Positions 1-45,053 are shown, numbered from the stretch's first letter. The stretch: 49,612 nt of DNA from an uncultured Desulfobulbia bacterium (GCA_964423785.1 CAYRGZ010000002.1:1-49612); one strand, 5' to 3'. Numbers and translations: made by a program. Notes: generated by a model from the sequence alone, not told the origin.

Positions 1-93
1 CCCTTCTTCACGCTCCGGCCCATGGGTGTCCATTTGGGCAGGGGCAGTTTTTCAACTCGCGCATTCACATACAGGCTTTGGACGCACCGGAAG

Positions 94-262
94 TCAAGAT
101 ATGCCTGCACATTCAGTGGTCAAGATCGTACCCTCTTCAGGGTAACAAGTTGAGAACACCAATCTTGATGGATTCGTAACAAGTCGAAAAACCGCAAGAC
201 GGCAACAATATACAGAGTGCCACCCTCCGCTACACCACTATATGTTGTGCCAGAAATCTTGA
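94..262. repeat. Cluster of short repeated motifs; candidate protein-binding (arm-type or operator) sites
   Basis: Heptamer TCAAGAT occurs at 94-100 and 120-126, and as its reverse complement ATCTTGA at 162-168 and 256-262. A 9-mer GTAACAAGT is directly repeated at 142-150 and 176-184. The region has no plausible ORF and lies just upstream of the excisionase-type HTH gene. Confidence 0.5.
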
Positions 263-414
263 CTGCTGAATTGTTACGATTCCATAAATCTTAGGTTGGC
301 AGAAAGAAAGCAGCCTCGTTTGTTCTTGACGGCATCTGTCTGTTAATGCATACTGTAATCTGTTTTCGTTGGTATTCATAGCCATTAGGCCTGCAACTGG
401 CAAAGAGGGACGAA

Positions 415-630
415 ATGACTGCTGAAGAACGATGGGTCGGCGTCGAAGATGTGGCTACGCATCTGGGCGTGAATAAAGACTCTGTATATCGCTGGATAGA
501 GAAGATGGGTTTGCCGGCCCATCGCGTCGGAAGGCTTTTTCGGTTCAAGCTTTCAGAGGTGGACGAGTGGGTTAAATCGGGCGGAGCAGCGGAGCCTGAT
601 TCTCAGAATCCAGCCCGAGGGAAAAAGTAA
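415..630 (+). CDS. Excisionase-family / MerR-like helix-turn-helix DNA-binding protein
   Basis: 71-aa ORF. The segment VEDVATHLGVNKDSVYRWIEKMGLPAHRVGRLFRFKLSEVDEWV fits the excisionase-type HTH pattern (LGVS..TVYRW...G.LPA...G+.+RF....+.EW). AGAGGGA lies upstream of the ATG. The stop overlaps the next start (TAATG at 628-632). Confidence 0.75.
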   Translation: MTAEERWVGVEDVATHLGVNKDSVYRWIEKMGLPAHRVGRLFRFKLSEVDEWVKSGGAAEPDSQNPARGKK

Positions 631-2126
631 TGGATGTTTTGCTGACATTCACAGGGTTTCATGACCCCTATTTCAAGGGGCTGGTTGACCAGGAGGAACA
701 GCCTGGCCCTATCCTTTCCCTGCTGAGCACACGCTCGTTCGATCATATCTTTCTTTTCGATACACCCAGTACCCAAAGGGTCACCGAGGAAACGAAGGAC
801 GTCATCTTAAAGCTCCATCGTGGCACTGAGGTTCACGTTCTCGAAATCAACCTTTCCGATCCGACCAATTACCAGGAGATATTCAGGGGCCTTCGTGTCC
901 ACATCCATAGCATCATTGAGGATTTTTCTTCAGCCCGTTTTTTTGTTGCCGTCGCTTCTGGAACCCCGCACATGCATGCTTGCTGGGTTCTCCTCACGGC
1001 GTCCGGCGAGATTCCAGCCCGCATTCTCCATGTGCGCCCCCCGCGTTTCGTAACGAAGGAACATCCGCTCGTGAGCGAGGTGGATTTGTCCTCTCGGGAT
1101 TTCCCTACCGTCAGGTTCCTGGACAGGCCGATCACGGTTGAGGAAGACGAAATCGATGTCAACTCCGTCAGGGTACAGCTCGGCATTGTGGGGGACCACC
1201 CCGCAATGCAGCGTTCACTCGAGATGGGTGCGATGCTGGCCCCATCACAGGCCCCGATTCTCATTCTGGGCGAGACCGGCACAGGCAAGGAGCTGTTCGC
1301 CCGGTACATCCACAGACTAAGTGGGAGGCCGCGGGGGGCCTTCGTCCCTGTAAACTGCGCGGCAATTCCGGAAGACCTTGTCGAAAGCCTGCTGTTTGGT
1401 CATAAGAAAGGAGCCTTTACCGGAGCAGTCAATGACCAGGTCGGCAAGTTTGACACAGCGGACAAGGGGACTCTCTTTCTGGATGAACTTGGAGAGCTGC
1501 CCCTGCCGGCACAGGCCAAACTGCTACGAGTTGTCCAAGATGGGTTGGTGGAGCCGATCGGACAAGCCAAGGCGCATAAAGTTGATGTGCGGATTGTGGC
1601 CGCAACGAATCGGGACTTGCGGAAACTGGTAAGGCAAGGGAAATTCCGCGAAGACCTTTTTTATAGGCTCAATGTTGGTGAAATCAAACTTCCCCCGCTT
1701 CGAGAAAGGCGTTCCGACATCCCCAAATTGGCGCTTCACATTCTCGATAGGCTGAATGGTTCGTTGCGGCGCCCAAAGAGGCTGTCGGCAGAGGCCTTAT
1801 CGAGGCTGCAATCTCACAACTGGGCGGGGAACGTTCGCGACCTGGAGAATGTCATTGAGCGATCTGTTCGGCTTTGTCGTGATGACGTCCTGGATGCTGA
1901 TGACCTCCTGATCACTGAGCCGGTCACTTACGCGGACCCGCTGGATGCGCTTCCTGACCCTTATGAAGGTTTCTCTTTGGATGAGTTCCTTGGCAGTGCT
2001 CGGAAGCAGATGATTCTCCGGGCTCTTGAAGCAGCGAACGGGAACCAGAGTCAGGCAGCTCGAATGCTTGGGATTACTCCCCAGGCGGTGCACAAGTTCC
2101 TGCAGCAATCGAAGCGAAAGACTTAA
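630..2126 (+). CDS. Sigma-54-dependent transcriptional activator with RtcR-like (CARF-type) N-terminal sensor domain
   Basis: 498 aa. The AAA+ sigma-54 interaction module has Walker A GETGTGKE, the GAFTGA loop and Walker B LFLDELGEL. The C-terminal Fis-type HTH is QSQAARMLGITPQAVHKFL. The N-terminal ~140 aa are Rossmann-like, with VAVASGTPHMHACWVLL resembling the ITTGTHVAQICWFLL segment of the E. coli RtcR CARF domain (recalled from memory, not searched). Confidence 0.85.
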   Translation: MDVLLTFTGFHDPYFKGLVDQEEQPGPILSLLSTRSFDHIFLFDTPSTQRVTEETKDVILKLHRGTEVHVLEINLSDPTNYQEIFRGLRVHIHSIIEDFSSARFFVAVASGTPHMHACWVLLTASGEIPARILHVRPPRFVTKEHPLVSEVDLSSRDFPTVRFLDRPITVEEDEIDVNSVRVQLGIVGDHPAMQRSLEMGAMLAPSQAPILILGETGTGKELFARYIHRLSGRPRGAFVPVNCAAIPEDLVESLLFGHKKGAFTGAVNDQVGKFDTADKGTLFLDELGELPLPAQAKLLRVVQDGLVEPIGQAKAHKVDVRIVAATNRDLRKLVRQGKFREDLFYRLNVGEIKLPPLRERRSDIPKLALHILDRLNGSLRRPKRLSAEALSRLQSHNWAGNVRDLENVIERSVRLCRDDVLDADDLLITEPVTYADPLDALPDPYEGFSLDEFLGSARKQMILRALEAANGNQSQAARMLGITPQAVHKFLQQSKRKT

Positions 2127-2143
2127 ACCGGAGTTTAAGATGT

Positions 2144-2159
2144 TTCAACCTGGGTTGAA
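2144..2159. promoter_or_regulatory. 16-bp palindrome; candidate enhancer (UAS) for the sigma-54 activator
   Basis: TTCAACC-TG-GGTTGAA has perfect 7-bp inverted arms. It lies about 80-90 bp upstream of the -24 element at 2237, the usual distance for bEBP binding sites. Confidence 0.35.
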
Positions 2160-2236
2160 GGGCAAGGCTGAAGAGAGGCGAACCGTGAAGGCGTCAATGC
2201 AAGGCATTCCAGCAGGTTATGTATTTTTGCAAAGTG

Positions 2237-2252
2237 TGGCATGGGCATTGCT
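2237..2252 (+). promoter_or_regulatory. Sigma-54 (-24/-12) promoter
   Basis: TGGCAT-GGGCA-TTGCT matches the TGGCAC-N5-TTGCW consensus with correct GG/GC spacing. It sits in the intergenic region directly downstream of the sigma-54 activator gene, about 55 nt upstream of the first operon gene (SD AAAGGAG, ATG at 2307). Confidence 0.7.
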
Positions 2253-2306
2253 TTGTTCGGAACACAGAGAGAATAACCAGTGGTCCGAAACCAGAAAGGA
2301 GCAACC

Positions 2307-2591
2307 ATGTCAGCTTTTACGGTCACCGCAATTATCGATGGGGATACATTCGAGGTTTCCCCTCAGTGGAAATGGAACGGCGAAACCGGCACGCGTGTCC
2401 GGCCAACGGGCTATGACGCTCCAGAGTTGCACGCCTACGGAGGCCAAGCCGCAAAGGACAAACTGTCGAGACTCATTCTCAGAAAAGAAGTCGATCTGCG
2501 GACGGCCTATAAAGTCGACCGCGGGCGGCTTGTTTGCGACGTCTACTTCCGAGGCAAGAACCTCGCTGACTACTTTCCCGAATACCAATAG
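2307..2591 (+). CDS. Small staphylococcal-nuclease (SNase/thermonuclease)-like protein
   Basis: Motifs IIDGDTFEV and RVRPTGYDAPELH (SNase pattern DGDT...R..G.DAPE) and a later VDRGRLVCDVY (YGR.L..V-like). The internal ATG at 2307 has a good SD (AAAGGAGCAACC); the listed ORF begins at 2280. Confidence 0.7.
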   Translation: MSAFTVTAIIDGDTFEVSPQWKWNGETGTRVRPTGYDAPELHAYGGQAAKDKLSRLILRKEVDLRTAYKVDRGRLVCDVYFRGKNLADYFPEYQ

Positions 2592-2594
2592 AGG

Positions 2595-4961
2595 ATGGCT
2601 GTGATGGCACGGAATGAACGGACAACTTGCAAGGAGCTGATCGAGCCGGCTCTCACCCAGGCCGGGTGGGAGTGGAAAGAGCAGCTGCGTATCGGCCCGG
2701 GCCGTGTCAATATCACCGGCGAGAGCATGTATGATGAGACACAGGAGATCATTGCCGATTATCTTCTGCTTTATCGTGGCATCCCGCTGACCATCCTCGA
2801 AGCCAAGGCCGAGTCCGAGAGTGCCGCCGATGGAATGCAGCAAGCTTCGCGCTACGCCCGCCGTTTGCTGATTCGATTCTCCCTGGCATCCAACGGCAAG
2901 GACTGGATTCTCACTGACAACGACACCGGTCATTTTGAGTCCCTCTCAGCACCGCCAACGCCCGAGGACATTGTCACCCGGCTTGGCGTCACTATTGATT
3001 GGGACAGGTGGGAATCCTCATTCACGGCGGGATACCACGTCGACCAAATCACCCGCAAAACGGTTCGCCCCTATCAGGAAATGGCGATAACCAAGACCCT
3101 TTGGCAGTTCGCGCAAGGGCAAACCCGAGCATTACTGCTCATGGCCACTGGTACCGGCAAGACCTTCGTTGTGTTCCAGCTCATCTGGAAATTGATGAAC
3201 GGTAATGCCCTCAAGCGGCAGCACGTGCTGTTTCTCACCGACCGCAACAGCCTTAAGGATCAGGCCTATCGCTCATTCGCAGCCTTTACGGCGGATGAGC
3301 GCGTCACCATCGACAAGGAAACCGTTGCCAAAGGGAAGCACCTGGTTGGCAAGGTGTTCTTCGCCAATTACCAGACCCTCGATGAGGAGCTGGATGGCAA
3401 AAAGGTCTATGAACACTACGACCCGGACTTCTTCGATCTCGTGGTGGTTGACGAGTGTCATCGCTCCGGGTTCGGCGACTGGTTCGGTGTGCTGGAGCAC
3501 TTTGGTTCTGCGCTGCAACTCGGCCTTACCGCGACCCCGCGCGAGCTTGAGGAGGGTAAGCGTGCGCTGACCGAGGAAGAGAAACGACGCGACACCTATC
3601 ATTACTTCGGCGAGCCGATCTACAGTTACAGCCTCAAGCAGGCCATCGAGGATGGATACCTCGTGCCCTATCTGCTCGAGGAGCGTATCACCAACGTCGA
3701 CGAAAATGGCTACACCGGCCCCGACGGCAAGCACTACACAACTTCGAACTTCGAGCGTGACATCCGTATGCCGGATCGCACCCGGGCTATCGCCGAGGAC
3801 CTGTGGGATATCTTCGGCAAGTACGGTCTGCGTGATGAAAAGACCATCGTTTTCTGCGTGGACGACACCCACGCCGCCTTCATGGCCCAGGAACTGCGTC
3901 GACTGGCCGGTGACAACGACTACGCGGCCCGTATCACCCGGGCCGAACGAAACAGCCACCAGTTGGAGCGCAACTTCGCTATCGTCGGTTCCGGCAAGCC
4001 GCGCATAGCCGTAACCGTTGATCTGCTGACCACCGGTTACGACGCGCCGGACGTGAGAAATATCGTCTTTGTTCGTCCGCTGCGCAGCGCGATCCTCTAC
4101 AAGCAGATGAAGGGGCGCGGAACGCGCCTCTGTGAGGATATCAACAAGCGTTACTTTACGATCTTTGACTATTCAGGTGCGAGTCAGCTTGAGGACGCCG
4201 AGTTCGACGGGCACCCCGCCAACCGGCAGAAGGGCGCGCAACCCAAGTCGAAGCCCAGGAGGAAGACAGGCGGCGAAACGACGCTCAAGCCGGTTGGTGA
4301 AGGCGTCTCCGTCATCATCTCGGCGACCAATCGTTATGTCTGCCTGGCCGACGGACGCAAGATTCCCTTCGAGGAATACACCGAGCAGTCACGCGAGTTC
4401 ATCCTCAGCGTTTCCACCAAAAGCCTGGATGAGCTGCTGGCCATCTGGATCGACAAGAAGAGCCGCAAGGAACTGCGCGAGGAGCTTCGGGACCACGACA
4501 TCTATCCTGCTGCTTTCCGCCATTATCTTGACCTTGCGGGTACCGACGACGTGGACATACTTGCCAAGATCGGCTTTAAGCTGGTGCGGGTTCCAACACG
4601 CCGTCACCGGGTCGACAGGTTCTGGGATGAAGAAGATTCATGGTTTCATGCCCAGATTCTCCAGGAGAAACAAGCGGAGATAATTCCTTTTCCATCTCGA
4701 GAAGAACTCCTGATGGCAGCGGAATCACAAGCACCTTACGGTTCTGATTCTTTCAAGCGGCAATTTTGGCAGGTCAGCCTGGATCATTACGCGCTGTTCG
4801 GCATAGACGATTTGGAACAGGCCCGCACGTATGGTGCGCCGCAGTTCGTGGAACAGTTCGGCAGCTTCCAGACGCTGACGCGTCGCTATGGGGGTGCACA
4901 GACACTCAAGGCTGATTTGGAAGCCGTGAAACAGCATCTTTACGTGCCTATGACCGTTTAG
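2595..4961 (+). CDS. hsdR: Type I restriction enzyme R subunit (HsdR), with EcoEI-R-type C-terminal domain
   Basis: The N-terminus NERTTCKELIEPALTQAGWEW is typical of the HsdR N-domain. SF2 helicase motifs are present: LLMATGTGKT (Walker A), VVDECHRS (DEAH box), LGLTATP and QMKGRGTR. The C-terminal tail resembles the EcoEI R C-terminal domain. An alternative start at 2604 has better SD spacing. Confidence 0.9.
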   Translation: MAVMARNERTTCKELIEPALTQAGWEWKEQLRIGPGRVNITGESMYDETQEIIADYLLLYRGIPLTILEAKAESESAADGMQQASRYARRLLIRFSLASNGKDWILTDNDTGHFESLSAPPTPEDIVTRLGVTIDWDRWESSFTAGYHVDQITRKTVRPYQEMAITKTLWQFAQGQTRALLLMATGTGKTFVVFQLIWKLMNGNALKRQHVLFLTDRNSLKDQAYRSFAAFTADERVTIDKETVAKGKHLVGKVFFANYQTLDEELDGKKVYEHYDPDFFDLVVVDECHRSGFGDWFGVLEHFGSALQLGLTATPRELEEGKRALTEEEKRRDTYHYFGEPIYSYSLKQAIEDGYLVPYLLEERITNVDENGYTGPDGKHYTTSNFERDIRMPDRTRAIAEDLWDIFGKYGLRDEKTIVFCVDDTHAAFMAQELRRLAGDNDYAARITRAERNSHQLERNFAIVGSGKPRIAVTVDLLTTGYDAPDVRNIVFVRPLRSAILYKQMKGRGTRLCEDINKRYFTIFDYSGASQLEDAEFDGHPANRQKGAQPKSKPRRKTGGETTLKPVGEGVSVIISATNRYVCLADGRKIPFEEYTEQSREFILSVSTKSLDELLAIWIDKKSRKELREELRDHDIYPAAFRHYLDLAGTDDVDILAKIGFKLVRVPTRRHRVDRFWDEEDSWFHAQILQEKQAEIIPFPSREELLMAAESQAPYGSDSFKRQFWQVSLDHYALFGIDDLEQARTYGAPQFVEQFGSFQTLTRRYGGAQTLKADLEAVKQHLYVPMTV

Positions 4962-4983
4962 TGGAATGCGAAAGGAGTGAACA

Positions 4984-5259
4984 ATGGGAACGAAGAAAGT
5001 GAAGTACAACAAGACCGGCATCGAACAACTCCCCAATAACAAACCTGTCCTGTACAGGATTGAAAGTGCCGGTGGGAACCAGAATTACGTTGGCATTGCC
5101 AAGCGCGGGCGGGTCCGGGAACGTATAGCCGAACATCTCGGCGAGATTCCCGGGACAACTGTTCGTATCGAGCAACTCAGTTCGATCGAAGAAGCACGGC
5201 AAAAAGAGGCGCGCGTAATCAAACGAAACCAGCCGAAATACAATAACCAGGGGAAATAA
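4984..5259 (+). CDS. Stand-alone GIY-YIG nuclease domain protein
   Basis: 91 aa. PVLYRIES...NYVGIAKRGRVRERIAEHL...EEARQKEARVIKRNQPKYN fits the GIY...YIG...R...E...N layout. The SD is AAAGGAG. The stop overlaps the hsdM start (TAATG). Confidence 0.75.
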   Translation: MGTKKVKYNKTGIEQLPNNKPVLYRIESAGGNQNYVGIAKRGRVRERIAEHLGEIPGTTVRIEQLSSIEEARQKEARVIKRNQPKYNNQGK

Positions 5260-7352
5260 TGCGAAAAAACAATGACCACCGCAGGCGGGAAGTTCAACAG
5301 ATCGTCAAGAATGCCTGCGACCAGCTCAACCAGGAGGGCGTGGACGCCCGCAACTACGTTGAGCAACTGGCCTGGCTTTTCTTCCTCAAGGCCTTCGACG
5401 AGGCTGAGTCCCGCAAGGAAGAAGAAGCCGCTTTCGACGACACGCCTTACGAACGCCGTCTCGCCGGCGAGTTCGCCTGGTCGTCCTGGGCCAAGGACAC
5501 CGATCACCCGGACCGGATGCTGGAATTCGTGCAGGGCAAGCTCTGGACCAAGCTCACCAGTCCAGACCCCAAGAAGGGCCTGGGAGATGACCTGCTGGCC
5601 CAGCGTTTCCGACGTATTTTTGACAACGTGCGCAACTACTGCCGACGGGGCGCGTCCTTCGCCAAGGTCGTTCAGCAGGTCGACAAACTGCATTTCTCCG
5701 ATGAAACCGATGTCATCGTGCTCTCGGAGATTTATGAAGATCTCCTCAAGCGCGTGGCCGCCGACTCCGCCGGGTATGCGGGCGAGTTCTACACGCAGAG
5801 GCACATCATCCGCACCATGGTCGAGGTGGTCCAGCCCAAGGCAGGGGACCGTGTTTACGACCCCTGTTTCGGCACGGCGGGTTTCCTTGGCGAGGCCGCC
5901 GATTACATCCGTGAAAGCGCTAACCTCAGCGGCAAGCAGCTTGACAAACTCCAGCGCCACACCTTCTACGGTATAGAAATCAAGCCGCTTACCTACCTGC
6001 TGGGCACCATGAACATGATCCTGCACGGCATCGAGGGAGCCAACCTGGAACTGGCCAACACACTGGAGCTTCACAGTTCGAACGTGCCCGAGAAGGACAA
6101 ATACACCGTCATCCTCTCCAATCCGCCCTATGGCGGGAAAATGGCCCAGAGTCTCCAGAACAATTTCCGTGTCAAATCCAGCGCCACCGAGTGCCTGTTT
6201 GTCCAGCACATCATGGCCAACCTCGCCAGGGGCGGGCGCGCCGGCGTGGTCATCCCGGAAGGTGTGCTTTTCCGCGGCGGGCCCGACCAGAAAGTCCGCA
6301 AGGAACTGCTGGAGCATTTCAACGTCCACACCATTCTTTCGCTCCCTGCGGGCTGTTTCCTGCCTTACACGGGCGTCAAGACCAATGTCATCTTCTTCGA
6401 CCGTCCGAAGACGCAGCCCAAGAGCGGGCAGATGGCCACCAGGAGCGTATGGTTCTATGAACTGACCAACGACGGCTTTGAACTCAAACAGACCCGCAAG
6501 CCTATCGAGGGCAGCCAGATTCCCGACTTCCTGAAAAAATGGAAAAGGCGAGTCACGGGCGAGAACTCCTGGACGGTTCCGGTCGAGGAGATCGTCGAGC
6601 GCGGCTACGACCTGTCGGCCAAGAACCCCAACCGCAAGGACGATTACGAACACCGCCCGGCGCTGGAATTGGTGCAGTCCATCAAGGCTAAGGAAGAGCG
6701 TATCATGCATCTGTTGGTTGAGCTGGAAGCATCATTGTCACGTTTTGATGATATTGATACAGCTTGGCCTACTGTGAAGCTTCGGAAACTAGCACAGAGG
6801 ATTGGTGGTGGTACGCCATCGCGAAAGACCCCAGCCTATTGGGGTGGATCAATTCCTTGGTTCACCGTTGCAGACTTGGAGGACGTTGATGATATTCAGT
6901 GTTTGTCAACAAGTCGAGAATGCATCACGCAACAAGGACTTGAACGGAGTGCGGCAAAATTGATCCCTTCTGGGGCAGTTGTTTTCTCAAGTAGAGTTGT
7001 TGTTGGCAAAGTCGGCATTGCCCAAAATGCCTTGGCAACTAACCAAGATTTTTCATCTTTTGTTCCCTCAGATGATATTACACCAGAGTTCTTAGCCTAC
7101 TATCTAATCAAGGTTAAGAATGACCTTCGAGAGCATCAGCGAGGAGCAACGATCAAAGGTGTTACAACAAAAGTCTTGGACGCAATTGATGTTCCAAAAG
7201 CTCCTGTAGATGCACAACAAACATTAGTAGATGTTATTAAGGAATGTATGGCTTATATCGCTGAGATTGAGAACCTTAATGGCTACCCATCGGAAGAAAT
7301 ATCCCAACTCCGCAAATCGATTTTACGCAAAGCTTTTGCAGGAGAACTATGA
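5259..7352 (+). CDS. hsdM: Type I R-M methyltransferase fused to a single HsdS target-recognition domain (HsdM-HsdS fusion)
   Basis: The HsdM N-domain (ARNYVEQLAWLFFLKAFDE) is followed by SAM motif I VYDPCFGTAGFL and catalytic motif IV SNPPYGG. From about aa 490 there is an HsdS-type TRD (VKLRKLAQRIGGGTPSRKTPAYWGGSIPWFTVADL ... GATIKGVTTKVL) ending in the conserved HsdS helix LRKSILRKAFAGEL. Confidence 0.9.
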   Translation: MRKNNDHRRREVQQIVKNACDQLNQEGVDARNYVEQLAWLFFLKAFDEAESRKEEEAAFDDTPYERRLAGEFAWSSWAKDTDHPDRMLEFVQGKLWTKLTSPDPKKGLGDDLLAQRFRRIFDNVRNYCRRGASFAKVVQQVDKLHFSDETDVIVLSEIYEDLLKRVAADSAGYAGEFYTQRHIIRTMVEVVQPKAGDRVYDPCFGTAGFLGEAADYIRESANLSGKQLDKLQRHTFYGIEIKPLTYLLGTMNMILHGIEGANLELANTLELHSSNVPEKDKYTVILSNPPYGGKMAQSLQNNFRVKSSATECLFVQHIMANLARGGRAGVVIPEGVLFRGGPDQKVRKELLEHFNVHTILSLPAGCFLPYTGVKTNVIFFDRPKTQPKSGQMATRSVWFYELTNDGFELKQTRKPIEGSQIPDFLKKWKRRVTGENSWTVPVEEIVERGYDLSAKNPNRKDDYEHRPALELVQSIKAKEERIMHLLVELEASLSRFDDIDTAWPTVKLRKLAQRIGGGTPSRKTPAYWGGSIPWFTVADLEDVDDIQCLSTSRECITQQGLERSAAKLIPSGAVVFSSRVVVGKVGIAQNALATNQDFSSFVPSDDITPEFLAYYLIKVKNDLREHQRGATIKGVTTKVLDAIDVPKAPVDAQQTLVDVIKECMAYIAEIENLNGYPSEEISQLRKSILRKAFAGEL

Positions 7353-8374
7353 TGCATCGAAGCCAATTGCCAGACAACTTCAGTATGGAGGTGAGCATCC
7401 CGACAGACGAGGATGGGTATCTGGATCGGGAGTGCCCCAACGATGTGTGCGAAGCGGCGTTCAAGATTCTGGTCGATGACTGGAAAGACAAGGTTCGCGA
7501 TGAAGAGGTGTTCTGTCCTGTGTGCGGACATACGGCGACATCCGACAATTGGTTGACACATGATCAGCTTGAATACTGCAAGAGCCGTCTTATGGCAGAA
7601 TTCATGCCGATGCTTGACGCGGAAATGAAACGCATGGCGCGTGATTTCAACCGCAGTATGCCCCGGGGCGGTCTGATCAGCGTATCCATGAGCTACAAGC
7701 CGTCTCGACCTATGACTGTGGTTCCTCTGGAGGCTGCGGAACTGATGCGACAACGGTACGTCTGTGAGTCGTGCGGTTGTCGGTATGCAGCGATAGGGGC
7801 GGCGTTTTTCTGCCCGTCCTGCGGCCACAACTCGGCGCGGACAGCGCTCGTAGAAACCCTGGCGACGGTTCGAAAGTTGCCTGAAGTACGAAAAGCCCTG
7901 GAAGCGGGACTCGACCGCGATGCTTCGGCCAACGCCTACCGACTCATACTCGAAGAAAACATGGGCAAGCTGGTGGCGGCCTTCCAGCGATTTGCTGAGG
8001 CTACCTTCGAGGCGCTTCCCAACGCGGGCGATTTCAGCCCTCGCCGCAACCTGTTCCAGAACCTGCCCCAGTCAAGCGACCTATGGGAACAGGCCATCGG
8101 TGTCCGCTACGAAGCCATGCTTACACCCACAGAGTGGAACGAGTTGCAACGCTGTTTTCAACAACGCCACATCCTGGCGCACAAGGATGGCATAGTGGAC
8201 GAGGATTACCTGAAAAAGACGGGCGACCGGCAGTATCAACCCGGCCAACGCTTGGTCATCAAAGAAGCCGATGTCATGCGCTTCACCGACCTGGTTAAGA
8301 AGCTCACAACTGCTCTGCATGACGCCTGCGTAGATGCAGCGGAAAATGAAAGGATTCATAACCAACGTGGTTGA
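7349..8374 (+). CDS. Double zinc-ribbon protein with C-terminal HEPN-like (Rx4H) domain
   Basis: 341 aa. The start overlaps the hsdMS stop (ATGA at 7349-7352). There are two 4-Cys clusters: CPNDVC...CPVCGH and CESCGC...CPSCGH. The helical C-terminal half carries QQRHILAHKDG (R273-x4-H278, nt 8165-8182). Confidence 0.6.
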   Translation: MMHRSQLPDNFSMEVSIPTDEDGYLDRECPNDVCEAAFKILVDDWKDKVRDEEVFCPVCGHTATSDNWLTHDQLEYCKSRLMAEFMPMLDAEMKRMARDFNRSMPRGGLISVSMSYKPSRPMTVVPLEAAELMRQRYVCESCGCRYAAIGAAFFCPSCGHNSARTALVETLATVRKLPEVRKALEAGLDRDASANAYRLILEENMGKLVAAFQRFAEATFEALPNAGDFSPRRNLFQNLPQSSDLWEQAIGVRYEAMLTPTEWNELQRCFQQRHILAHKDGIVDEDYLKKTGDRQYQPGQRLVIKEADVMRFTDLVKKLTTALHDACVDAAENERIHNQRG

Positions 8375-8378
8375 GGAA

Positions 8379-11300
8379 ATGTCACAATCCCATATCTGGC
8401 AGGTGCTCGACCATCTTCGGGACGAGTTACCCGCCCATGATGTGCCTGTGACTTTGGCCGCGCTTCTTTATCTCCGTTGGGCCGATTTCCAGGAAGCTGA
8501 GCAGGAGGCCATCGCCGCCTTTGACGAGGCTGATTACGACCCGGTGCTGCCCGCCGCGCTACACTGGCGATCCTGGTATGACCTTCCGCCACATGATCTG
8601 CCGGAACTTTTCTCGGACCGGCTTGCTCCGGCATTGGAGCGGCTGAACAATTCCCGTCACAATCCACTCGCGACCCACCTGCACCGAATTGCATCGGCGG
8701 TGAAGGACTTGGGGCGGCTGTCGCCCCACGCTCTGGAAGCGCTCATCCACTGGCTGGCACAGCAGCCCTTCGAAACACCATCGGACCGGCGCGCCTTGTT
8801 GGACGTTTTCGACGCCTTGTTGGACAGAGTTCCTGACAAGTCTTTCAGTGAGTTTCGCACCCCAGCCGCCATCGTCAGCCTGCTTGTCGAGCTGGCCGCG
8901 CCCGCGCCGGGGGACCGTGTCTACGACCCGTGCTTTGGTACGGCGGGTTTGCTCACTGCCGCCTGTGACCACGTTCTGCGCAAGGGGAAGGACCGCTTCA
9001 GCCGCAATGGCGGTCCTGGTTTGATGGTTTCGGGTGTCGAGCTGAACGCAGATGCCTTTGTCATCGGCTTGACGCGTCTTGCTTTGGCGGGTGTCGATGA
9101 TCCACAGCTTGAACTGGGCAACAGTTTGGAGCGCACGCCACCCAACAACCCGCAACAGGATGGATTTGACATTGTGTTGGCCAATCCCCCCTGGGGCATG
9201 CGTGTTCAGCCCGCTGGCCTGGATCATTTCCCCGTGCGGACCACGGACACAACGGGGCTGTTCATCCAGCATGCCTTGACCCAGCTTCGGCCTGAAGGCC
9301 GGGCCGTACTGGTTGTTCCCGAGGGGTTCCTTTTCCGAGGAGGTCCGGAGCGTAAATTGCGCAGGATGCTGGTGGAGCAGCACACGGTTGAGGCGGTTGT
9401 GTCTCTCCCCGCTGGCGCGTTCCTTCCTCATACGGGCATCAAGGCCAGTGTCCTCTTACTGCGTCGCGGTGGCTTGACAAAGCACATCCGAATGGTGGAT
9501 GCGGAATTCTACTTTGAGAAAGGCAAAGGGCGGAAACCCGCCACCATCCAACCTGAACAAATACAAAAGCTGGCCAAAGAAATCCGAACGCCAACGCCAT
9601 CCAGGAATTGCTGGGATGTGGATATTGAATCGCTGGCCGAGGTGGATTGGGATTTTACCCCGAAGCGCCGCGACCGGAGCGGCCTGCTCAGTATCCTTGA
9701 TTCGCTTCGATCCGAAGTGGACGTCCTTCCCCTCAAGGAGTGCTGCAAGATTTCAAGGGGGCGGATATTTCCGCGAGACCAACTCCTTGACGAGCCTCCA
9801 CCTCGCCCAACGGCCTGGGAACAGGCAAGTTTATTCCCTGAAACGAATACGGTACGGCAGCGAACGCTCTTCGATGCACCGATTATTCCCTATGTTCGGA
9901 TAAAGGATGTGCAACGGGGGCAGGCTTCCAGGGGGTCGTCCTGGTTATCCCCGGATGCGGCCGCTTCCGTGGATGCCAGGTGGAAGCTCAAGGCGGGCGA
10001 TGTGCTCCTTTCCAAATCCGGCACAATCGGCAAGGCCGGGGTGGTCCGAAACGGGGCGGTGGGAGCGGTTGCCGCCAGCGGCCTGTTCGTTCTTCGCCCC
10101 GACCAGGACCGCCTCGATCCGCACTTCCTTCTGGCTTACTTCGATAGCAGTGAGTGCCGGGCATGGCTGGATGACAAGGCCCGCGGGGCAACGATTCGAC
10201 ACCTGTCCAGGCGTATCCTGGGTGAGATGCCTGTGCCGCTGCCACCGCTTCAGATTCAGCAGCGTGTTGCAACTCAGCACCGCGGACATGGTGTCGATGT
10301 ATTGGCGTTCCTGGCCCAGCTCCTGACGCAGGGAGAAGATGATCCCATTGCACAGTGGCTCGACAAAGCTGCAACGGGATTGCCTCTCGATGTTGATGCG
10401 GTTGACGATCCACTGGACCTTGCCCCGCTGGATCGCCTTGCTTCGGAGGTTCGCGAGATTCGCAACCGGGTCGCGCACGACAGCCGGGGTGACAGCGCCC
10501 TTGCGGCGTGGATTCTCGCCTTTAACGAGGCAGTCTCCGGTCTTCGTGGTGTCCGCGCTATCCCGCAAGGACCAGGCCTGCTGAGCGTGTTACAGGAATC
10601 GGTCCGGGCATTGAAGGCGACGATGCCGCTGATTGCGGGGCATCTTCCGAATGAAGCTAAAGCGAGAAGTCTGACCAGGCTGGTGTCAACCTGGTTGGAC
10701 CGTGCGTGCTCGGCATTGCTTGGCAAGGTGAAAGTGGTCGTAAGCGCGGATGCCGCGACGTTGCCTGTTGGCGAAATGGTGGAGGTTACCCTCAGCGTTC
10801 ACAACCAGGGACCGCTACCATTACGCAATCTGAACATCTCGACAAGTCCTGACTGGGGGCGGGGTGATACCGACTATTTGGCAGAAGACGCAAAGATGGC
10901 TGTCGAACTGGTCGGGACCGGCCCCAAGAAAGCTGGTACGTTCACGCTGTCAGTGGAGTGGTCAGCCAACACACTTGACGGACAGACAACAGATGGGGTT
11001 CGCGAGATCGCGTTCGACGTCGTCGATACGATCCCGGATACCGGCGGGAACGATCTGGATATAGGCGGAAGCCCCTATGTTTGCGGCGATCCGGTCAGCC
11101 CCGAACGTAACGATGTGTTTTTCGGTCGTGAGGAACTACTGGAGCAGATCCGCCGTCAGGTTATCCGGAGTGGCAACGTGGTCCTGCTTGAAGGCAACCG
11201 CCGTTCGGGCAAGTCTTCTATCCTCTGGCATCTGGAGGGCACGAATGGTGTCCCCGGCTGGTTGGGTGTCTATTGCAGCCTGCAGGGTGCGGAGGGCAGC

Positions 11301-12305
11301 AAGGATGGCGTGGGCGTACCTACTGTCGAAGTGTTCCGGGAAATGGCCAAGAGCATTGCCAGGAGCATGCAGGCACTTGACGATAAAACACCTCTGCCGG
11401 ACGGCACCATACTTCCACCGGGCAAGAAACTCGGTATAGCCAAAGCATGCCGCAACGGGATCGGCGAAACGTCATCGTTTTCAGACTTCCGCGATTATGT
11501 TGAAGTCGCTCTTGAAACTCTGGCTAAACACGATCTTGGCCTGCTGTTGATGCTGGACGAGTTCGACAAGCTCCAGGAGGGCATTGATAGCGGCGTCACG
11601 TCGCCACAAGTCCCGGAAAACATTCGTTTCCTCGTTCAGTCCTACACGCGGTTTTGTGCAATCCTGACCGGCTCCCGGCGGTTGAAACGGCTGCGCGAGG
11701 AGTACTGGTCCGCCCTTTATGGTCTTGGAACCCGTTTTGGTGTGACCTCGCTGCCCGCCGAGTATGCCCGGCGTCTAGTCACCGAGCCAGTGAAGGGACG
11801 TCTTACCTACTCACGGGAAGCCGTTGAACGGGCGATCTTCCTGACCTCCGGGCAACCGTATCTCCTTCAGTGCTTGTGTAACCGTATTTTCGACATGTCC
11901 GCCCAATTGAAGACTCGGTCAGTGACGCTTGACTTGGTGGATCAGGCAGGAAATGCCCTTGTCGAGGACAACGAGCACTTCGCCAGTCTATGGGACTACG
12001 CCCAGTCTGATCGAAGGCGGTTCATCCTCGCGCTCTGCCACAAAGAAGCCGACAGCCCGGATCTCCTTCGACTGGGGGTAATTCAAGAGAGGTTATTCAG
12101 CCATGGCATCGAGGTCAGTGACGAGACCTTGATCGAGGACCTTGAATTCCTGCGAGAACTCGAACTCATCAAACTCGTAGGCGAAACCGGCGGAGGTCAC
12201 TACGTGTTGGCCATCCCGCTGATGGGGGCCTGGATCGAGAAACAACAGGACTTCGCGGCCGTCAAAAGCAAGGCAAGGTTGGAAACGGAGGATCTACATG
12301 AGTAA
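8379..12305 (+). CDS. Multidomain fusion: N6-adenine DNA methyltransferase, HsdS-type TRD, HEPN-like motif, beta-sandwich, P-loop (ORC/STAND-like) ATPase and a winged-helix-like tail
   Basis: MTase motif I is VYDPCFGTAGLL and motif IV is ANPPWGM (nt 9183-9194). The TRD reads LPLKECCKISRGRIF...GDVLLSKSGTIGKAGVV...GATIRHLSRRILGEMPVPLPPLQIQQRV. The HEPN-type motif EVREIRNRVAHD lies at nt 10461-10478. An Ig-like stretch follows (VEVTLSVHNQGPLPLRNLNIS...GTFTLSVEWS). ATPase motifs are FFGREELL...VVLLEGNRRSGKSSIL (Walker A) and LLLMLDEFDKL (Walker B). The listed ORF starts at 8334; the ATG at 8379 has SD GAGGAA and lies 4 nt after the upstream stop. Confidence 0.8.
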   Translation: MSQSHIWQVLDHLRDELPAHDVPVTLAALLYLRWADFQEAEQEAIAAFDEADYDPVLPAALHWRSWYDLPPHDLPELFSDRLAPALERLNNSRHNPLATHLHRIASAVKDLGRLSPHALEALIHWLAQQPFETPSDRRALLDVFDALLDRVPDKSFSEFRTPAAIVSLLVELAAPAPGDRVYDPCFGTAGLLTAACDHVLRKGKDRFSRNGGPGLMVSGVELNADAFVIGLTRLALAGVDDPQLELGNSLERTPPNNPQQDGFDIVLANPPWGMRVQPAGLDHFPVRTTDTTGLFIQHALTQLRPEGRAVLVVPEGFLFRGGPERKLRRMLVEQHTVEAVVSLPAGAFLPHTGIKASVLLLRRGGLTKHIRMVDAEFYFEKGKGRKPATIQPEQIQKLAKEIRTPTPSRNCWDVDIESLAEVDWDFTPKRRDRSGLLSILDSLRSEVDVLPLKECCKISRGRIFPRDQLLDEPPPRPTAWEQASLFPETNTVRQRTLFDAPIIPYVRIKDVQRGQASRGSSWLSPDAAASVDARWKLKAGDVLLSKSGTIGKAGVVRNGAVGAVAASGLFVLRPDQDRLDPHFLLAYFDSSECRAWLDDKARGATIRHLSRRILGEMPVPLPPLQIQQRVATQHRGHGVDVLAFLAQLLTQGEDDPIAQWLDKAATGLPLDVDAVDDPLDLAPLDRLASEVREIRNRVAHDSRGDSALAAWILAFNEAVSGLRGVRAIPQGPGLLSVLQESVRALKATMPLIAGHLPNEAKARSLTRLVSTWLDRACSALLGKVKVVVSADAATLPVGEMVEVTLSVHNQGPLPLRNLNISTSPDWGRGDTDYLAEDAKMAVELVGTGPKKAGTFTLSVEWSANTLDGQTTDGVREIAFDVVDTIPDTGGNDLDIGGSPYVCGDPVSPERNDVFFGREELLEQIRRQVIRSGNVVLLEGNRRSGKSSILWHLEGTNGVPGWLGVYCSLQGAEGSKDGVGVPTVEVFREMAKSIARSMQALDDKTPLPDGTILPPGKKLGIAKACRNGIGETSSFSDFRDYVEVALETLAKHDLGLLLMLDEFDKLQEGIDSGVTSPQVPENIRFLVQSYTRFCAILTGSRRLKRLREEYWSALYGLGTRFGVTSLPAEYARRLVTEPVKGRLTYSREAVERAIFLTSGQPYLLQCLCNRIFDMSAQLKTRSVTLDLVDQAGNALVEDNEHFASLWDYAQSDRRRFILALCHKEADSPDLLRLGVIQERLFSHGIEVSDETLIEDLEFLRELELIKLVGETGGGHYVLAIPLMGAWIEKQQDFAAVKSKARLETEDLHE

Positions 12306-13917
12306 TCCGAGGTTCCCCATATTAGGTACCGAGATCCCGCCGATGCTCGGCCGCGCCGGAATCATGCATCGCATCTGGAACGATCTCACCAAGACCACTC
12401 CAAGCAACCTTTCGGTGATCGGGCCGCGATTCGTGGGCAAGACAGTCATCATGAATGCCCTGGCCCAACGTATCACCGATGAAGAATCCCCCTATGAGTT
12501 CGTACTGTATTGGCACCTTGGTCATGTAGCACCGGCATCGGATGAAGATTTTATAGCCCAGCTCTGCGAGCGACTGCGCGACTGCCTGGCTCAATCACAA
12601 GCGGATACTTCCGAATATCGCAAGCACCTTGAGGATCATTCCTTCAGCAATCTGGCGGAAGTAGCTGAATTGCTTGACGGGGAGGGTTGGTCTGTTCTCA
12701 TGCTTTGGGATGGCTTCGACAAGCCTTTGGGCCAAGGAAAGCTGACGGGACACCTCTGGGATCAGATGCGGACGATGTTCTACGGCAAGAAGCACAAGAT
12801 AGTTACGGCAACGCGAAAACCGCTGAGCGAGTTGATCCGCAGTCAGGATGCCATCACCAGTCCGTTCTGGAATATCTTCGACATGAATCCCGTGCGCGTC
12901 GATGCCTTCGACGAGCAGGACCGTGAGGCGATCATCAAGGAATTATCGGCGCACAGTTTCCTGGCGGGGGCGAAAACCGAACTGGCCAACTGGTCTGCAG
13001 GATTTCCACCGCTTTTCCTGGGAATTTTGAATCAGATTGCCTGCGACATTCCGGCCGGGCAGGTGGACAACGAAACCGTCAACCGGGCGGCGAAGAAGGC
13101 CCTGGAGAATCTCTCCGATGTGATCTCGGCGATGTGGCAAGACTGTCCCGCTGGTGCAAAAGATCTCTACAGCCATCTTGTAGATCGTAGAGATTTTCTC
13201 TTCGATGATGCTGGGAAGGATGAAAGGGACTGCTTGATCGAGAAGGGCTTCGCCAGGAAAACGGGCAATAAGTTGACAGCCTCGTGTCGTATGCTTCAGG
13301 AGTATATCCAGGGTGCCGGGCCAGATGCCGGCAGCATGGCGCGCCTATTCAGATCATGGGATGATTATCAGGCTAACATCCGCGGTTTGCTCGAGCGCCG
13401 ACTGGCTCATATATCACGTTTTGATGATCGGCTGCATCGGCTCGTGGCCCGAGCTATTGAGGATATTCCTGATTTTCCTGACGACTGCCTGAACAATCTG
13501 ACGGGGATCAGAGATACCGCCTTGCAGATTATTTGGCAACGCGAGTTCGGGCCTGAAATGCGCGTGCCTCAGAATCTTGTTTCCTACTGGACGGAAAATC
13601 CACGCAGTAACCACAGATTGATTTCGGACATGATGCAGTCAGACAACTGGAGGATTTCTGACGATCCGCTGAATCAAATTCGCCTGTTGGGACTGTTGAC
13701 CGGGTGCCATAGAGATTTCGACGCGAAAGCGAAGGTCACCACAAAGGATACCTATGTTCTGATTGATGCCATTCATAACTTCCGAAACCGCTCCCAGCAC
13801 CCGGATGGACAAGCCATCCACCTTGGCGTGGCCGTCGCAGCGATCATGAGTTGCTTGGAACTACTGGCTTGCCTGGAACGGGAAAGCGTGACTTTGATAC
13901 CTGGGGGAGGGGCATGA
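12298..13917 (+). CDS. P-loop ATPase with C-terminal HEPN-like (RNxxxH) domain
   Basis: 539 aa. The start overlaps the upstream gene by 8 nt. Walker A is VIGPRFVGKTVIMNAL and Walker B-like is VLMLWDGFDKP. The C-terminal motif is IHNFRNRSQHPDG (R496-x4-H501, nt 13783-13800). Confidence 0.7.
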   Translation: MSNPRFPILGTEIPPMLGRAGIMHRIWNDLTKTTPSNLSVIGPRFVGKTVIMNALAQRITDEESPYEFVLYWHLGHVAPASDEDFIAQLCERLRDCLAQSQADTSEYRKHLEDHSFSNLAEVAELLDGEGWSVLMLWDGFDKPLGQGKLTGHLWDQMRTMFYGKKHKIVTATRKPLSELIRSQDAITSPFWNIFDMNPVRVDAFDEQDREAIIKELSAHSFLAGAKTELANWSAGFPPLFLGILNQIACDIPAGQVDNETVNRAAKKALENLSDVISAMWQDCPAGAKDLYSHLVDRRDFLFDDAGKDERDCLIEKGFARKTGNKLTASCRMLQEYIQGAGPDAGSMARLFRSWDDYQANIRGLLERRLAHISRFDDRLHRLVARAIEDIPDFPDDCLNNLTGIRDTALQIIWQREFGPEMRVPQNLVSYWTENPRSNHRLISDMMQSDNWRISDDPLNQIRLLGLLTGCHRDFDAKAKVTTKDTYVLIDAIHNFRNRSQHPDGQAIHLGVAVAAIMSCLELLACLERESVTLIPGGGA

Positions 13918-24928: not shown

Positions 24929-25789
24929 TCAGAACCGTTTCAGGGAGTGACCCAGGGCCTGGAGGGCACGTTTCACGATTCCTGGCCGGGGGGCGAGATT
25001 GGTCAGCCAAGGGCGCCACCGTTCCACGAAGGCGGCCATCTCGTGGTGCTGATTGGCTGCCAGCGCCAGGCCGGGGGGAGGCGGTCCCGTGGGGCCGGCC
25101 AGGGGCGCGGTGATCACCACCACCAGCCGCCGGTGGCGGCCGTAAAAGCCGTACGCCCCGATGACCTTGATCCAGGCGCCGTTCACCCGACCCCAGAAGG
25201 CCGCCCAGCGCAAGCCGTCGCCTCGTCCGCTGGTATAGAGTCGGTAGGGAGGCGGCACCGGGTAATCACGGAGGGGAAAGGCGGCTGTCTCGCTTTGTTG
25301 CAGGATAAAATTGACGTACGTATCTTCCGGTACCTGGAACAACCACGATTCGATGGTGGTGGGCCCCACCACCCGGCGGTTACTGGTGACCAAGGAGGCG
25401 TTCGCCGGCACGGCAAAGACGGTATCGAAGGCGTGTATGGTGTCGTCGGTACGTGTGCCGAGGGACGGCGGAGGGGGAAGAGAGTCCGTCTTGCTGGCGG
25501 CCGTCGCCGGCGGTGTCCGGCTCCAGCCCATCCGCGCTAAGCAGCGGTCATACAGTTCGGCATAGGTCTCCGGCCGGTAGTGCCGGTGCCGGGCGGTCGC
25601 GGCGATGGCCTGCCGCCGGGCAATGATTTCGCATTCCCGGGAGTCGATGTCGAATTCCCGCTGGCTGCCGCCCGCCTTGTACCAGGTCTGGGGCGTGGCG
25701 GCGCAGCCCGCGACCAGCATGCCCATCAACAGCGCCGGCCACCACCACCATCCACGTCGCATTCGAAGTGTTGTGCGTTCGACGGTCAT
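24929..25789 (-). CDS. Lipoprotein of unknown function; last gene of the EPS export operon
   Basis: 286 aa from MTVERTTLRMRRGWWWWPALLMGMLVAGC, a signal peptide with an LVAGC lipobox. The ATG overlaps the yjbH-like stop (ATGA at 25786-25789). The listed 576-aa ORF extends upstream, but that part overlaps the YjbH-like gene in another frame. Confidence 0.7.
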   Translation of the reverse strand: MTVERTTLRMRRGWWWWPALLMGMLVAGCAATPQTWYKAGGSQREFDIDSRECEIIARRQAIAATARHRHYRPETYAELYDRCLARMGWSRTPPATAASKTDSLPPPPSLGTRTDDTIHAFDTVFAVPANASLVTSNRRVVGPTTIESWLFQVPEDTYVNFILQQSETAAFPLRDYPVPPPYRLYTSGRGDGLRWAAFWGRVNGAWIKVIGAYGFYGRHRRLVVVITAPLAGPTGPPPPGLALAANQHHEMAAFVERWRPWLTNLAPRPGIVKRALQALGHSLKRF

Positions 25790-27915: not shown

Positions 27916-27930
27916 GCCTCCCCTGGATGG

Positions 27931-28962: not shown

Positions 28963-28975
28963 CCGTGCAGGCGGT

Positions 28976-38476: not shown

Positions 38477-38501
38477 CGTCCGGCTCCAAAAGGATCGTTC
38501 C

Positions 38502-41822: not shown

Positions 41823-42006
41823 GCCCCCCCGCCTCCATAGCCATTGTTGGTTTCTGGTTTGGAGTCTACGCTGTTTTACTCTTGCTGGAGCCAAGCTCTT
41901 CTGGCTCCACAGAGCCGGACATCAAACTGGCGGCGTAACCCACGAAATTATCCACCTATCCACCTTATTCCGGCCGCCAAACTGTCCAACGATAGGGGGC
42001 CCACCT

Positions 42007-44945: not shown

Positions 44946-45035
44946 GGGGGTGGCTCCTTTCCGTGTGCTCGCGAGGTCGGGGTTCGTTCTCCTTGGTTCG
45001 TATGCTGGGGAGGTGTCTTCGTGGTAGTGAGTCTC

Positions 45036-45051
45036 AGCAACGGTCGTGCCA
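45036..45051 (-). promoter_or_regulatory. Sigma-54 (-24/-12) promoter
   Basis: The minus strand reads TGGCAC-GACCG-TTGCT, a perfect match to TGGCAC-N5-TTGCW. It begins 3 nt after the stop of the second sigma-54 activator gene and lies about 90 nt upstream of the ATPase ATG at 44945. Confidence 0.7.
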
Positions 45052-45053
45052 GT

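Follow-up and report, generated by a model that had tools for sequence, protein, structure and literature searches.

A predicted CARF-controlled, sigma-54-dependent switch at the head of a defence operon in an uncultured Desulfobulbia bacterium

The timing with which bacteria express costly or self-toxic defence genes is largely obscure; for most defence islands, constitutive expression is assumed. A 49,612-nt stretch of DNA from an uncultured Desulfobulbia bacterium (GCA_964423785.1 CAYRGZ010000002.1:1-49612; 'the window' below means this whole stretch) raises the question in a concrete form: what controls a tightly packed array of restriction-modification (R-M) and other defence genes that follows the gene of an RtcR-family activator (630-2126, + strand)? 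An earlier, sequence-only reading of the DNA had proposed that the activator and a sigma-54 promoter head a 22-kb operon that may be strictly activator-dependent. Our analysis indicates that region 630-2310 is quite probably a self-contained switch, composed of a CARF-domain activator, two dyads and a sigma-54 promoter that would drive a gene for a small staphylococcal-nuclease-like protein ('mini-SNase') together with the R-M and other defence genes.

We searched a protein database for homologues of the N-terminal domain of the activator. The search returned only short fragments, from which an alignment of the N-domain was built and used to pull 80 related genomic loci from Planctomycetota, Thermodesulfobacteriota, Nitrospirota, Acidobacteriota, Gammaproteobacteria and others. 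One of them, L040 (NZ_CP173161.1 1482081-1502605), shows that the culturable Pseudoalteromonas phenolica a1 has the same cassette. Promoters were counted in the 64 loci with an intact activator gene and at least 300 nt of DNA 3' of it. A sigma-54 site was defined as a GG-N10-GC site that agrees with TGGCACG-N4-TTGCW at 10 or more of the 12 specified positions. The control regions included 42 that are non-redundant at <75% identity.

A putative enhancer-promoter module at a fixed position behind the activator gene

The putative sigma-54 promoter, with -24 and -12 elements, is TGGCATGGGCATTGCT at 2237-2252 (+ strand), with the GG at 2238-2239 and the GC at 2250-2251. It was correctly picked out by the sequence-only reading; it has one mismatch to TGGCAC-N5-TTGCW and ends 54 nt before the ATG of the mini-SNase gene at 2307. 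The position of the site is conserved. Counting from the activator stop, 52 of the 64 loci have a sigma-54 site within a narrow band at ~95-120 nt, against an expected 0.023 per 460-nt region. Among the 12 loci that look negative, several have a somewhat weaker site at the corresponding position, preceded by the same upstream elements; in others the activator gene is frameshifted or interrupted, or small genes have been inserted. Small unrelated open reading frames (ORFs) were seen 3' of the activator stop in L045, L056 and L069, where the dyads and the sigma-54 promoter would be. Across the family an IHF-like element (consensus aataACAA...GTT; IHF site WATCAANNNNTTR) 17-32 nt before TGGCAC is moderately conserved; as a part of the window it was dropped, the match at 2205-2220 being poor.

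Two dyads lie between the activator gene and the promoter. The proximal dyad, TTCAACCTGGGTTGAA (2144-2159), is a perfect palindrome with 7-bp arms (TTCAACC-TG-GGTTGAA). This is the 16-bp palindrome noted before, which is real but does not stand alone: a distal, imperfect and likewise conserved dyad, TTAAACCGGAGTTTAA, occupies 2123-2138 and overlaps the TAA stop of the activator gene. The family consensus is TTYAACC-NN-GGTTRAA, which the proximal dyad matches at 14/14 positions as the sole full-score site in the window. The centres of the two dyads are 21 bp (two helical turns) apart in 43 of 47 loci, and the proximal centre lies at -84 ± 2 nt from TGGCAC in all 51 loci compared (51/51); in the window it is 84 nt before TGGCAT. 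These distances correspond to about -110 and -131 relative to the expected transcription start, which would fall at about 2262-2264. The core AAC-N4-GTT is invariant, and position 3/14 varies without strict symmetry or complementarity. The distal dyad is kept even where, in some relatives, it falls inside the coding sequence of the activator. In L036, L038, L047, L051, L061, L067 and others it (GATTTCAACCGGAGTTGA) occupies the last codons and encodes a C-terminal ...FNRS.

The dyads and the promoter together make up a putative enhancer-promoter module whose layout is rigidly kept in dozens of loci across many phyla. Because the dyads are held in fixed phasing to the -24/-12 promoter, we read them as the enhancer, or upstream activating sequence (UAS), of an AAA+ activator, predicted to be bound by the Fis-type helix-turn-helix (HTH) domain, HTH_8, of the activator encoded next to them. 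The predicted recognition helix of this domain (PQAVHKFL) is nearly invariant; since the dyads are nearly invariant as well, a comparison of helix and dyad covariation was uninformative.

The activator and its CARF sensor

The activator is a 498-residue RtcR-family enhancer-binding protein, identified through Pfam, PADLOC and PDB matches and a model of its CARF domain. It can be divided into an N-terminal CARF sensor (residues 1 to ~165; 630-1124), a sigma-54 AAA+ domain (residues 186-352; 1185-1685), an AAA+ lid (AAA_lid_14, residues 358-426) and the HTH_8 domain (residues 459-488; 2004-2093). The Pfam profile Sigma54_activat (PF00158) matches at 9.1e-68 with 167/168 profile positions covered, and the translation contains GETGTGKE (Walker A), GAFTGA (the sigma-54 contact loop) and LFLDELGE (Walker B). 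Residues 185-488 match the bacterial enhancer-binding proteins NifA, ZraR, FleQ and NtrC in the PDB at 1e-70 to 1e-80. The PADLOC family RtcR_PspF2--CARF_AAA_HTH (PDLC01995) matches nearly end to end (1.7e-138, residues 2-494 on positions 2-478 of 481).

The RtcR-type motif ASGTPHMHACWVLL, on which the sequence-only reading had based its view of the N-domain, is found in the activator, and the Pfam RtcR profile (PF06956) scores 44.6 bits there (cut-off 23.1), with a weaker match to Cas_Csm6_CARF. That reading had made a CARF/Rossmann fold of the N-domain one of the points on which it would stand or fall, and the domain does model as CARF: an AlphaFold model of residues 1-175 has a pLDDT of 88 and a pTM of 0.84, and its top 50 Foldseek matches in the PDB are all CARF proteins. 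The best match is the cyclic hexaadenylate (cA6)-binding Csm6 of Enterococcus italicus (EiCsm6; 6tug, E = 9e-9, TM 0.68), and further matches include Streptococcus thermophilus Csm6', Cam1, Cdn1, Can2, Card1 and ring nucleases. The alignment of the sensor family has 24 invariant columns, including G9, D12, P13 and S110-G-T-P113. Its GFHDP and SGTP(Q/H)MH motifs, which stand for the conserved motifs after strands 1 and 4 of the Rossmann-like, six-stranded CARF fold, vary little or not at all. A profile of the sensor domain also finds EiCsm6 by sequence (7e-5), aligning GFHDP and SGTPQM with GNTDP and SGTPQM of Csm6. The putative ligand-pocket motifs of the sensor therefore resemble those of Csm6.

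Orthology with RtcR did not hold up. The activator scores 357.2 bits against the NCBIfam RtcR equivalog (NF038308), for which the cut-off is 650, and its N-domain is 26-32% identical to those of annotated Rhizobium rtcR genes; family scans of the large ORFs of the window found no match to RtcA or RtcB, and rtcBA is absent from the window. The activator is thus an RtcR-family paralogue, a CARF-AAA+-HTH enhancer-binding protein and not an RtcR orthologue, and the low equivalog score and low identity mean that the ligand of RtcR cannot be assumed for it. In a separate observation on the sensor domain, we found it to be 84-97% identical among L001-L013 and L072, which are metagenome-assembled genomes (MAGs) of Planctomycetota, Poribacteria, Thermodesulfobacteriota, Nitrospirales and one 'Methanobacteriota archaeon' bin. 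Such identity across MAGs of different phyla points to a cassette that has recently spread by horizontal transfer, or else to errors in binning.

A CARF-AAA+-HTH protein encoded beside a conserved enhancer-promoter module makes activator- and sigma-54-dependent transcription into the operon very likely, as far as sequence can indicate. We infer that the activator would bind the dyads, that its ligand would be nucleotide- or RNA-derived and that the transcript would extend beyond the R-M genes. Activator dimers would occupy both dyads through their HTH domains. The CARF domain would hold the ATPase inactive until a signal arising from infection or RNA damage is bound, an inhibitory and ligand-relieved role that we propose by analogy with E. 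coli RtcR. The sensor domain of E. coli RtcR was reportedly assigned such an inhibitory role by Genschik in 1998. Once relieved, the AAA+ domains would assemble into a ring, contact the sigma-54 holoenzyme by looping of the DNA and open the promoter, and the transcript would carry the mini-SNase gene, the packed type I R-M genes and then probably the STAND, GHKL and SNF2 genes.

First target gene, operon cargo and competing readings

The first gene after the promoter (2307-2591, + strand) encodes a 94-residue protein that we identified as a truncated staphylococcal-nuclease (SNase)-like protein from an AlphaFold2 model, Foldseek and the conservation of its place as first gene. A ribosome-binding site, GGAG (2298-2301, + strand), lies 5 nt before the ATG, within a conserved GAAAGGAGCA motif. 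The model (pLDDT 87) has staphylococcal nuclease as its top Foldseek matches (TM 0.62-0.67, probability 1.00), and the Pfam SNase profile matches at 17 bits, below its cut-off of 21. Some sources label the protein 'thermonuclease family'. The identification required a fold search, since a profile search of PDB sequences yielded nothing beyond a repeat match to IcmE/DotG, which was rejected as spurious. Clustering at 90% identity divides the family into more than 1066 clusters. Almost all have a length of exactly 94 residues, and the C-terminal helices of SNase (149 residues) are missing. D11, G12, D13, T14, R30, R32, E40, D71 and G73 are invariant, and the DGDT, RVRP, DAPE and DRGR positions show little or no variation. 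In our own alignment to the SNase sequence, the conserved positions fall on what we take to be the Ca-binding and catalytic residues D19/D21, R35, D40, E43 and R87 of SNase. Of 50 related loci, 43 have the mini-SNase gene in first place behind the promoter; the mini-SNase, and not R-M, is the invariant partner of the switch. On the modelled fold, it is predicted to be a nuclease of the SNase type.

The genes that follow are all on the + strand and encode the HsdR, HsdM and HsdS functions of a type I R-M system along with other cargo. HsdR (2595-4961) is EcoAI/type IB-like (Pfam ResIII, HSDR_N and EcoEI_R_C; PADLOC REase_I 9e-101; restrict_EcoAI 533 bits, cut-off 550). It is followed by a small GIY-YIG domain protein (4984-5259; Pfam GIY-YIG 5e-5, 23.9 bits, cut-off 22.6) and by an HsdM fused to one specificity (TRD) domain (5259-7352; Pfam N6_Mtase 1.6e-67, HsdM_N and Methylase_S; PADLOC MTase_I 3e-140). 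Next are a PDC-M14A-like Zn-ribbon protein (7349-8374; PADLOC PDC-M14A 1.3e-21), which has a homologue in L050, and a second HsdM-like methyltransferase with a TRD, fused to a STAND NTPase (8334-12305; Pfam N6_Mtase 2.5e-43, Methylase_S, AAA_16 and nSTAND1). A NACHT/AAA_16-like NTPase (12298-13917) is a weak assignment, with Pfam matches below gathering scores. The array ends with a 2612-residue protein that has an N-terminal sacsin-type GHKL ATPase-like domain as its only assigned part (13851-21689; Pfam SACS 6e-25; P_loop_sacsin 105 bits; N-terminal match to PADLOC TmtA) and a DrmD-like SNF2 helicase (21686-24379; full-length match to PADLOC DrmD, PDLC02634, 4e-288; Pfam SNF2-rel_dom and Helicase_C), the last co-directional gene.

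The sequence-only reading had described this cargo as R-M plus HEPN, GHKL and SNF2 genes. The R-M, GHKL-like and SNF2 components were found, and HEPN was not: Pfam, PADLOC and NCBIfam gave no HEPN domain in any protein of the operon, and a search of the 2612-residue, 341-residue and NTPase proteins at E ≤ 1 gave none. Two defence-system assignments were set aside. Matches to MAD1, MAD2 and MAD5 of the MADS system are far below the equivalog cut-offs and reflect generic HTH or type I M/S similarity; for DISARM, the operon contains no DrmA, DrmB or DrmC, and the NCBIfam DISARM_DrmD score is 284 bits (cut-off 610).

In 33 of 43 related loci the first three downstream genes include one for HsdR or HsdM, and the median intergenic gap of the arrays is 9 nt. 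The variable cargo of these relatives includes DUF3800, AAA_15/DUF3696 ATPases, Ser/Thr kinases, a pPIWI-associated nuclease domain, GmrSD, DUF2130 and vWA/WXG/FtsK-like/Card1-type nuclease sets. As side observations, a Card1-type CARF nuclease (L023, 18756-20525) or a UPF1-like helicase (L027, 10915-14124) was found as cargo beside the same activator and mini-SNase; with the Card1-type cargo, a second CARF protein can lie 3' of the CARF activator.

On the upstream side, a small HTH_17 gene (415-630, + strand; excisionase/AlpA-like and MAD1-like; Pfam HTH_17 2e-13) is translationally coupled to the activator gene through a TAATG overlap. The best NCBIfam match of its product is antiphage_MADS1, whose cut-off of 80 is not reached (61.6 bits); the excise domain scores 55 bits. 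The protein could be a co-regulator or the excisionase of a mobile element; a tRNA or attachment-site clue was looked for in the window and none was found. Of 69 related loci, 23 have a homologue immediately 5' of the activator gene. A sigma-70-like promoter candidate for the gene pair (TTGACG-17-CATACT) is located at 326-354 (+ strand), with a 9/12 consensus match only, in an upstream region where two sigma-70-like matches stand against 1.6 expected by chance. A scan of 1-3000 with Rfam gave nothing relevant.

This coupling, its recurrence and the location of the dyads exactly at the end of the activator gene allow another account of the palindromes, as operators of the HTH_17 protein or as a site at which transcription of the activator gene stops or is attenuated. 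We consider it very unlikely that they serve as either and not as an enhancer. Dyads are kept in many loci without a detectable HTH_17 gene, and the distance from dyad to -24 element is fixed to within ± 2 nt, as expected of an enhancer and not of a terminator. The variation at position 3/14 without strict complementarity likewise counts against this account, and RNA folding of 2115-2175, no better than that of shuffled sequences (z = -0.57) and with no T-run, led us to drop a terminator or attenuator in this segment. A different question is how far the switch reaches. It is a distinct possibility that it governs only the mini-SNase gene, perhaps with HsdR, and that the methyltransferase and the distal STAND, GHKL and SNF2 genes are expressed mainly from internal sigma-70 promoters or by sigma-70 read-through. 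R-M biology demands constitutive methylation, no terminator blocks read-through from 326-354, and the mini-SNase is the sole invariant downstream partner, with variable cargo after it. Internal promoters in such arrays were also expected by Bell et al. (PMC11090510). Against so short a reach, the gene packing is as the sequence-only reading described it: from 2307 onward the gaps are 3, 22, -1, -4, -41, -8, -67 and -4 nt, none above 22 nt, with overlapping stop and start codons through to 24379. In relatives, HsdR, HsdM and HsdS follow the mini-SNase with a median gap of 9 nt. Sigma-70-like matches within 2300-22299 are not enriched (4 against 5.6 expected), a count that neither favours nor excludes internal promoters.

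What the sensor detects is a further point on which readings diverge. Instead of 2',3'-cyclic-phosphate tRNA fragments, the signal might be oligoadenylates, cyclic or linear (cA6-like or A_n>p), that originate elsewhere in the cell, with a type III CRISPR system or a different cyclase as examples of a source. The best structure and sequence matches of the sensor are to cA6-binding Csm6 CARF domains (6tug, 8pe3), with which it shares the GxxDP and SGTPQM motifs, and it scores below the RtcR equivalog cut-off. In EiCsm6, Asn10, Thr114 and Gln116 are required for cA6 sensing, and Thr114 and Gln116 contact cA6 (PMC7101355). Equivalents of Thr114 and Gln116 are kept in the activator family, but the protein of the window has His at the Gln116 position, and Asn10 and Thr11 are replaced in the family by Phe and His. 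The window proteins scanned include no cyclase or Cas10, the Pfam RtcR model is still the top-scoring CARF-family profile, and the PDB matches include no RtcR CARF structure with which to compare. On this evidence we regard an oligoadenylate ligand as rather unlikely; were it the ligand, the module would tie a nucleotide second-messenger pathway to the transcription of R-M and defence genes.

Several observations weigh against the switch that we propose, or against its strictness. The -24 element reads TGGCAT and not TGGCAC, and the window by itself contains 4 matches to TGGCAC-N5-TTGCW with at most one mismatch against 1.46 expected, a number reached by 6 of 100 shuffles; the significance of the promoter comes from its positional conservation across loci and not from the statistics of the window. 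The host rpoN gene is not in the window, and its presence in the genome is made likely by two sigma-54 activators within 49 kb. There is a slight probability that, in the window, it is not the activator but the HTH_17 protein encoded with it that binds the dyads. Because the sensor fails the RtcR equivalog cut-off, the regulatory logic of RtcR may not transfer. The activator is co-directional with the operon, and no terminator-like structure was found between its stop and the sigma-54 promoter; together with the sigma-70-like candidate at 326-354, this makes basal expression by read-through possible. Strict dependence on the activator is also biologically awkward, since an R-M system that is off until induced leaves the chromosome unmethylated. 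A type I R-M system has to keep the chromosome methylated, and some hsdM expression is therefore likely to be constitutive. Induction could also be buffered by ClpXP-dependent restriction alleviation, which is documented for enzymes of types IA and IB. The claim that all 22 kb are strictly activator-dependent therefore appears overstated. Some expression may be independent of the activator, and basal expression that keeps the chromosome methylated would probably come from upstream-promoter read-through or from internal promoters.

A second activator, known systems and meaning for defence control

A second member of the RtcR_PspF2 family is encoded in the window at 45054-46565 (- strand; the ORF as listed starts at 46724), with a PADLOC match of 1.4e-200. 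It is 39% identical to the first and scores 347.4 bits against the NCBIfam RtcR equivalog. A perfect sigma-54 site, TGGCACGACCGTTGCT (45036-45051, - strand), starts 2 nt past its stop. Its operon (32255-46724) encodes an AAA_15/DUF3696 ATPase (42921-44945), DruH (38502-41894) and DruE (32255-38476) of Druantia type III, all on the - strand, and a 417-residue ORF with no family assignment. No enhancer dyad was identified for this activator; only short, chance-level inverted repeats were found. Plasmids of Pseudomonas luteola, Azotobacter chroococcum and Polaromonas naphthalenivorans encode relatives of the second activator. Of five plasmid-borne relatives examined, four have a -24/-12-like site at the stop or within a few nt of it, and in the fifth (L083) the sole, weak -24/-12 match is ~165 nt 3' of the stop. 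In all five (5/5) the activator is followed by type I R-M or by vWA/PP2C/kinase and large AAA operons. Because the second activator and these relatives repeat the layout, an activator followed by its own sigma-54 promoter and a defence operon appears to be a general design of the family.

Between the two convergent defence operons lies an exopolysaccharide export cluster (25786-31507, - strand; YjbH, a Wzz/GNVR chain-length determinant and Poly_export/SLBB), apparently unrelated housekeeping cargo. A 576-residue ORF at 24929-26659 (- strand) has no Pfam match and may not be real because it overlaps the YjbH ORF. Pfam and PADLOC gave no match for an 838-residue ORF at 47006-49522 (+ strand), which is oriented divergently to the second activator gene.

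An RtcR-like family with CARF, NtrC-type AAA+ and HTH domains, often associated with R-M, was described by Makarova et al. (2014; PMC4012209), who predicted in section 7 of that paper that infection-derived ligands cause sigma-54-dependent activation of downstream restriction genes. The activator of the window belongs to this family, given its full-length match to the PADLOC profile for it (RtcR_PspF2) and the type I R-M genes 3' of it. Bell et al. (2024; PMC11090510, section 11 and Fig. 8) reported that RtcR homologues head co-directional 'superoperons' of up to 40 kb with Type I R-M, SNF2, Druantia III and CoCoNuTs, and proposed induction through an upstream activating sequence, with internal promoters deemed probable. 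The idea of an RtcR sensor rewired to defence, as put forward in the sequence-only reading, thus follows a logic that had been predicted before; it is a rediscovery of published predictions from 2014 and 2024 (PMC4012209, PMC11090510) and not new. In the passages found by term search, the 2014 paper names neither promoter nor enhancer elements, nor a small nuclease as partner; these are defined here from 80 loci. Term searches of the 2024 paper gave no staphylococcal-type nuclease, and promoters only as possible internal, RtcR-independent ones. Earlier descriptions of the DNA control elements, or of the small nuclease as a partner, do not seem to exist.

The operon of the window shares with CoCoNuT superoperons (Type II/III-A) an RtcR homologue at the 5' end, a co-directional array and a logic of induced, layered defence, and some relatives found here have vWA/PP2C/kinase triads and UPF1-like helicases as in CoCoNuT loci. 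However, it differs from the published superoperons in having no CoCoNuT and an unusual STAND/GHKL/SNF2 cargo. The CoCoNuT core (McrB-like CnuB, McrC-like CnuC and CnuH) was not detected in it with Pfam, PADLOC or NCBIfam, and neither of the two window operons gave a McrB, McrC or UPF1-like match; the UPF1-like helicase occurs only in the relative L027.

RtcR of E. coli and Salmonella has the same CARF-AAA+-HTH architecture and a homologous N-domain and activates a neighbouring sigma-54 promoter, that of rtcBA. It is activated by 2',3'-cyclic-phosphate tRNA fragments and/or by RtcAB binding to the CARF domain (Hughes 2020, PMC7790460; Kotta-Loizou 2022, PMC9650030). There the activator gene is divergent from its target, whereas here it is co-directional and upstream; rtcA and rtcB are absent, the pocket motifs are closer to Csm6, and the target is a nuclease with R-M and defence genes. 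Csa3-type CARF regulators of CRISPR-Cas and WYL/BrxR-type regulators also fuse a ligand sensor to a DNA-binding domain that controls immune genes, but they are simple repressors or activators on sigma-70 promoters, in contrast to the ATP-driven sigma-54 activator described here, which is in principle off by default. Controller (C) proteins of type II R-M systems are likewise small cis-encoded regulators with dyad operators on restriction genes; they work with sigma-70 and time establishment after transfer, and unlike the present switch they have no sensor domain or enhancer-dependent promoter. No experimental study of regulation by RtcR-like defence activators was found in the literature searched.

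The conserved placement of a nuclease gene first hints at a feedback circuit, which is not described in the literature that we found. The CARF activator, the enhancer and sigma-54 promoter, and the mini-SNase might form a signalling circuit in which the mini-SNase, as the first product of induction, makes or destroys the nucleic-acid-derived ligand of the CARF domain, an idea that we hold to be doubtful at present. If it were true, the mini-SNase would either amplify the signal by positive feedback, as RtcA does, or reset it in the manner of ring nucleases. In that case the module would be a portable alarm cassette into which type I R-M, TerY-P/helicase and AAA_15 cargos have been plugged across many phyla, and type I R-M could be run as an inducible rather than a constitutive arm of immunity.

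What the analysis adds to the earlier predictions is the cis-architecture at the level of single bases with its statistical support, the mini-SNase as invariant partner and the Csm6-like pocket of the sensor. With the promoter, both activator sites and the first target gene located to the base, and kept from Planctomycetota to Thermodesulfobacteriota to Gammaproteobacteria, the computational predictions of 2014 and 2024 become directly testable. They also raise the puzzle of how an inducible type I R-M system would spare its own under-methylated chromosome. The module thereby offers a concrete, testable case of defence control that would be off by default, enhancer-dependent and governed by a nucleotide-sensing CARF domain.

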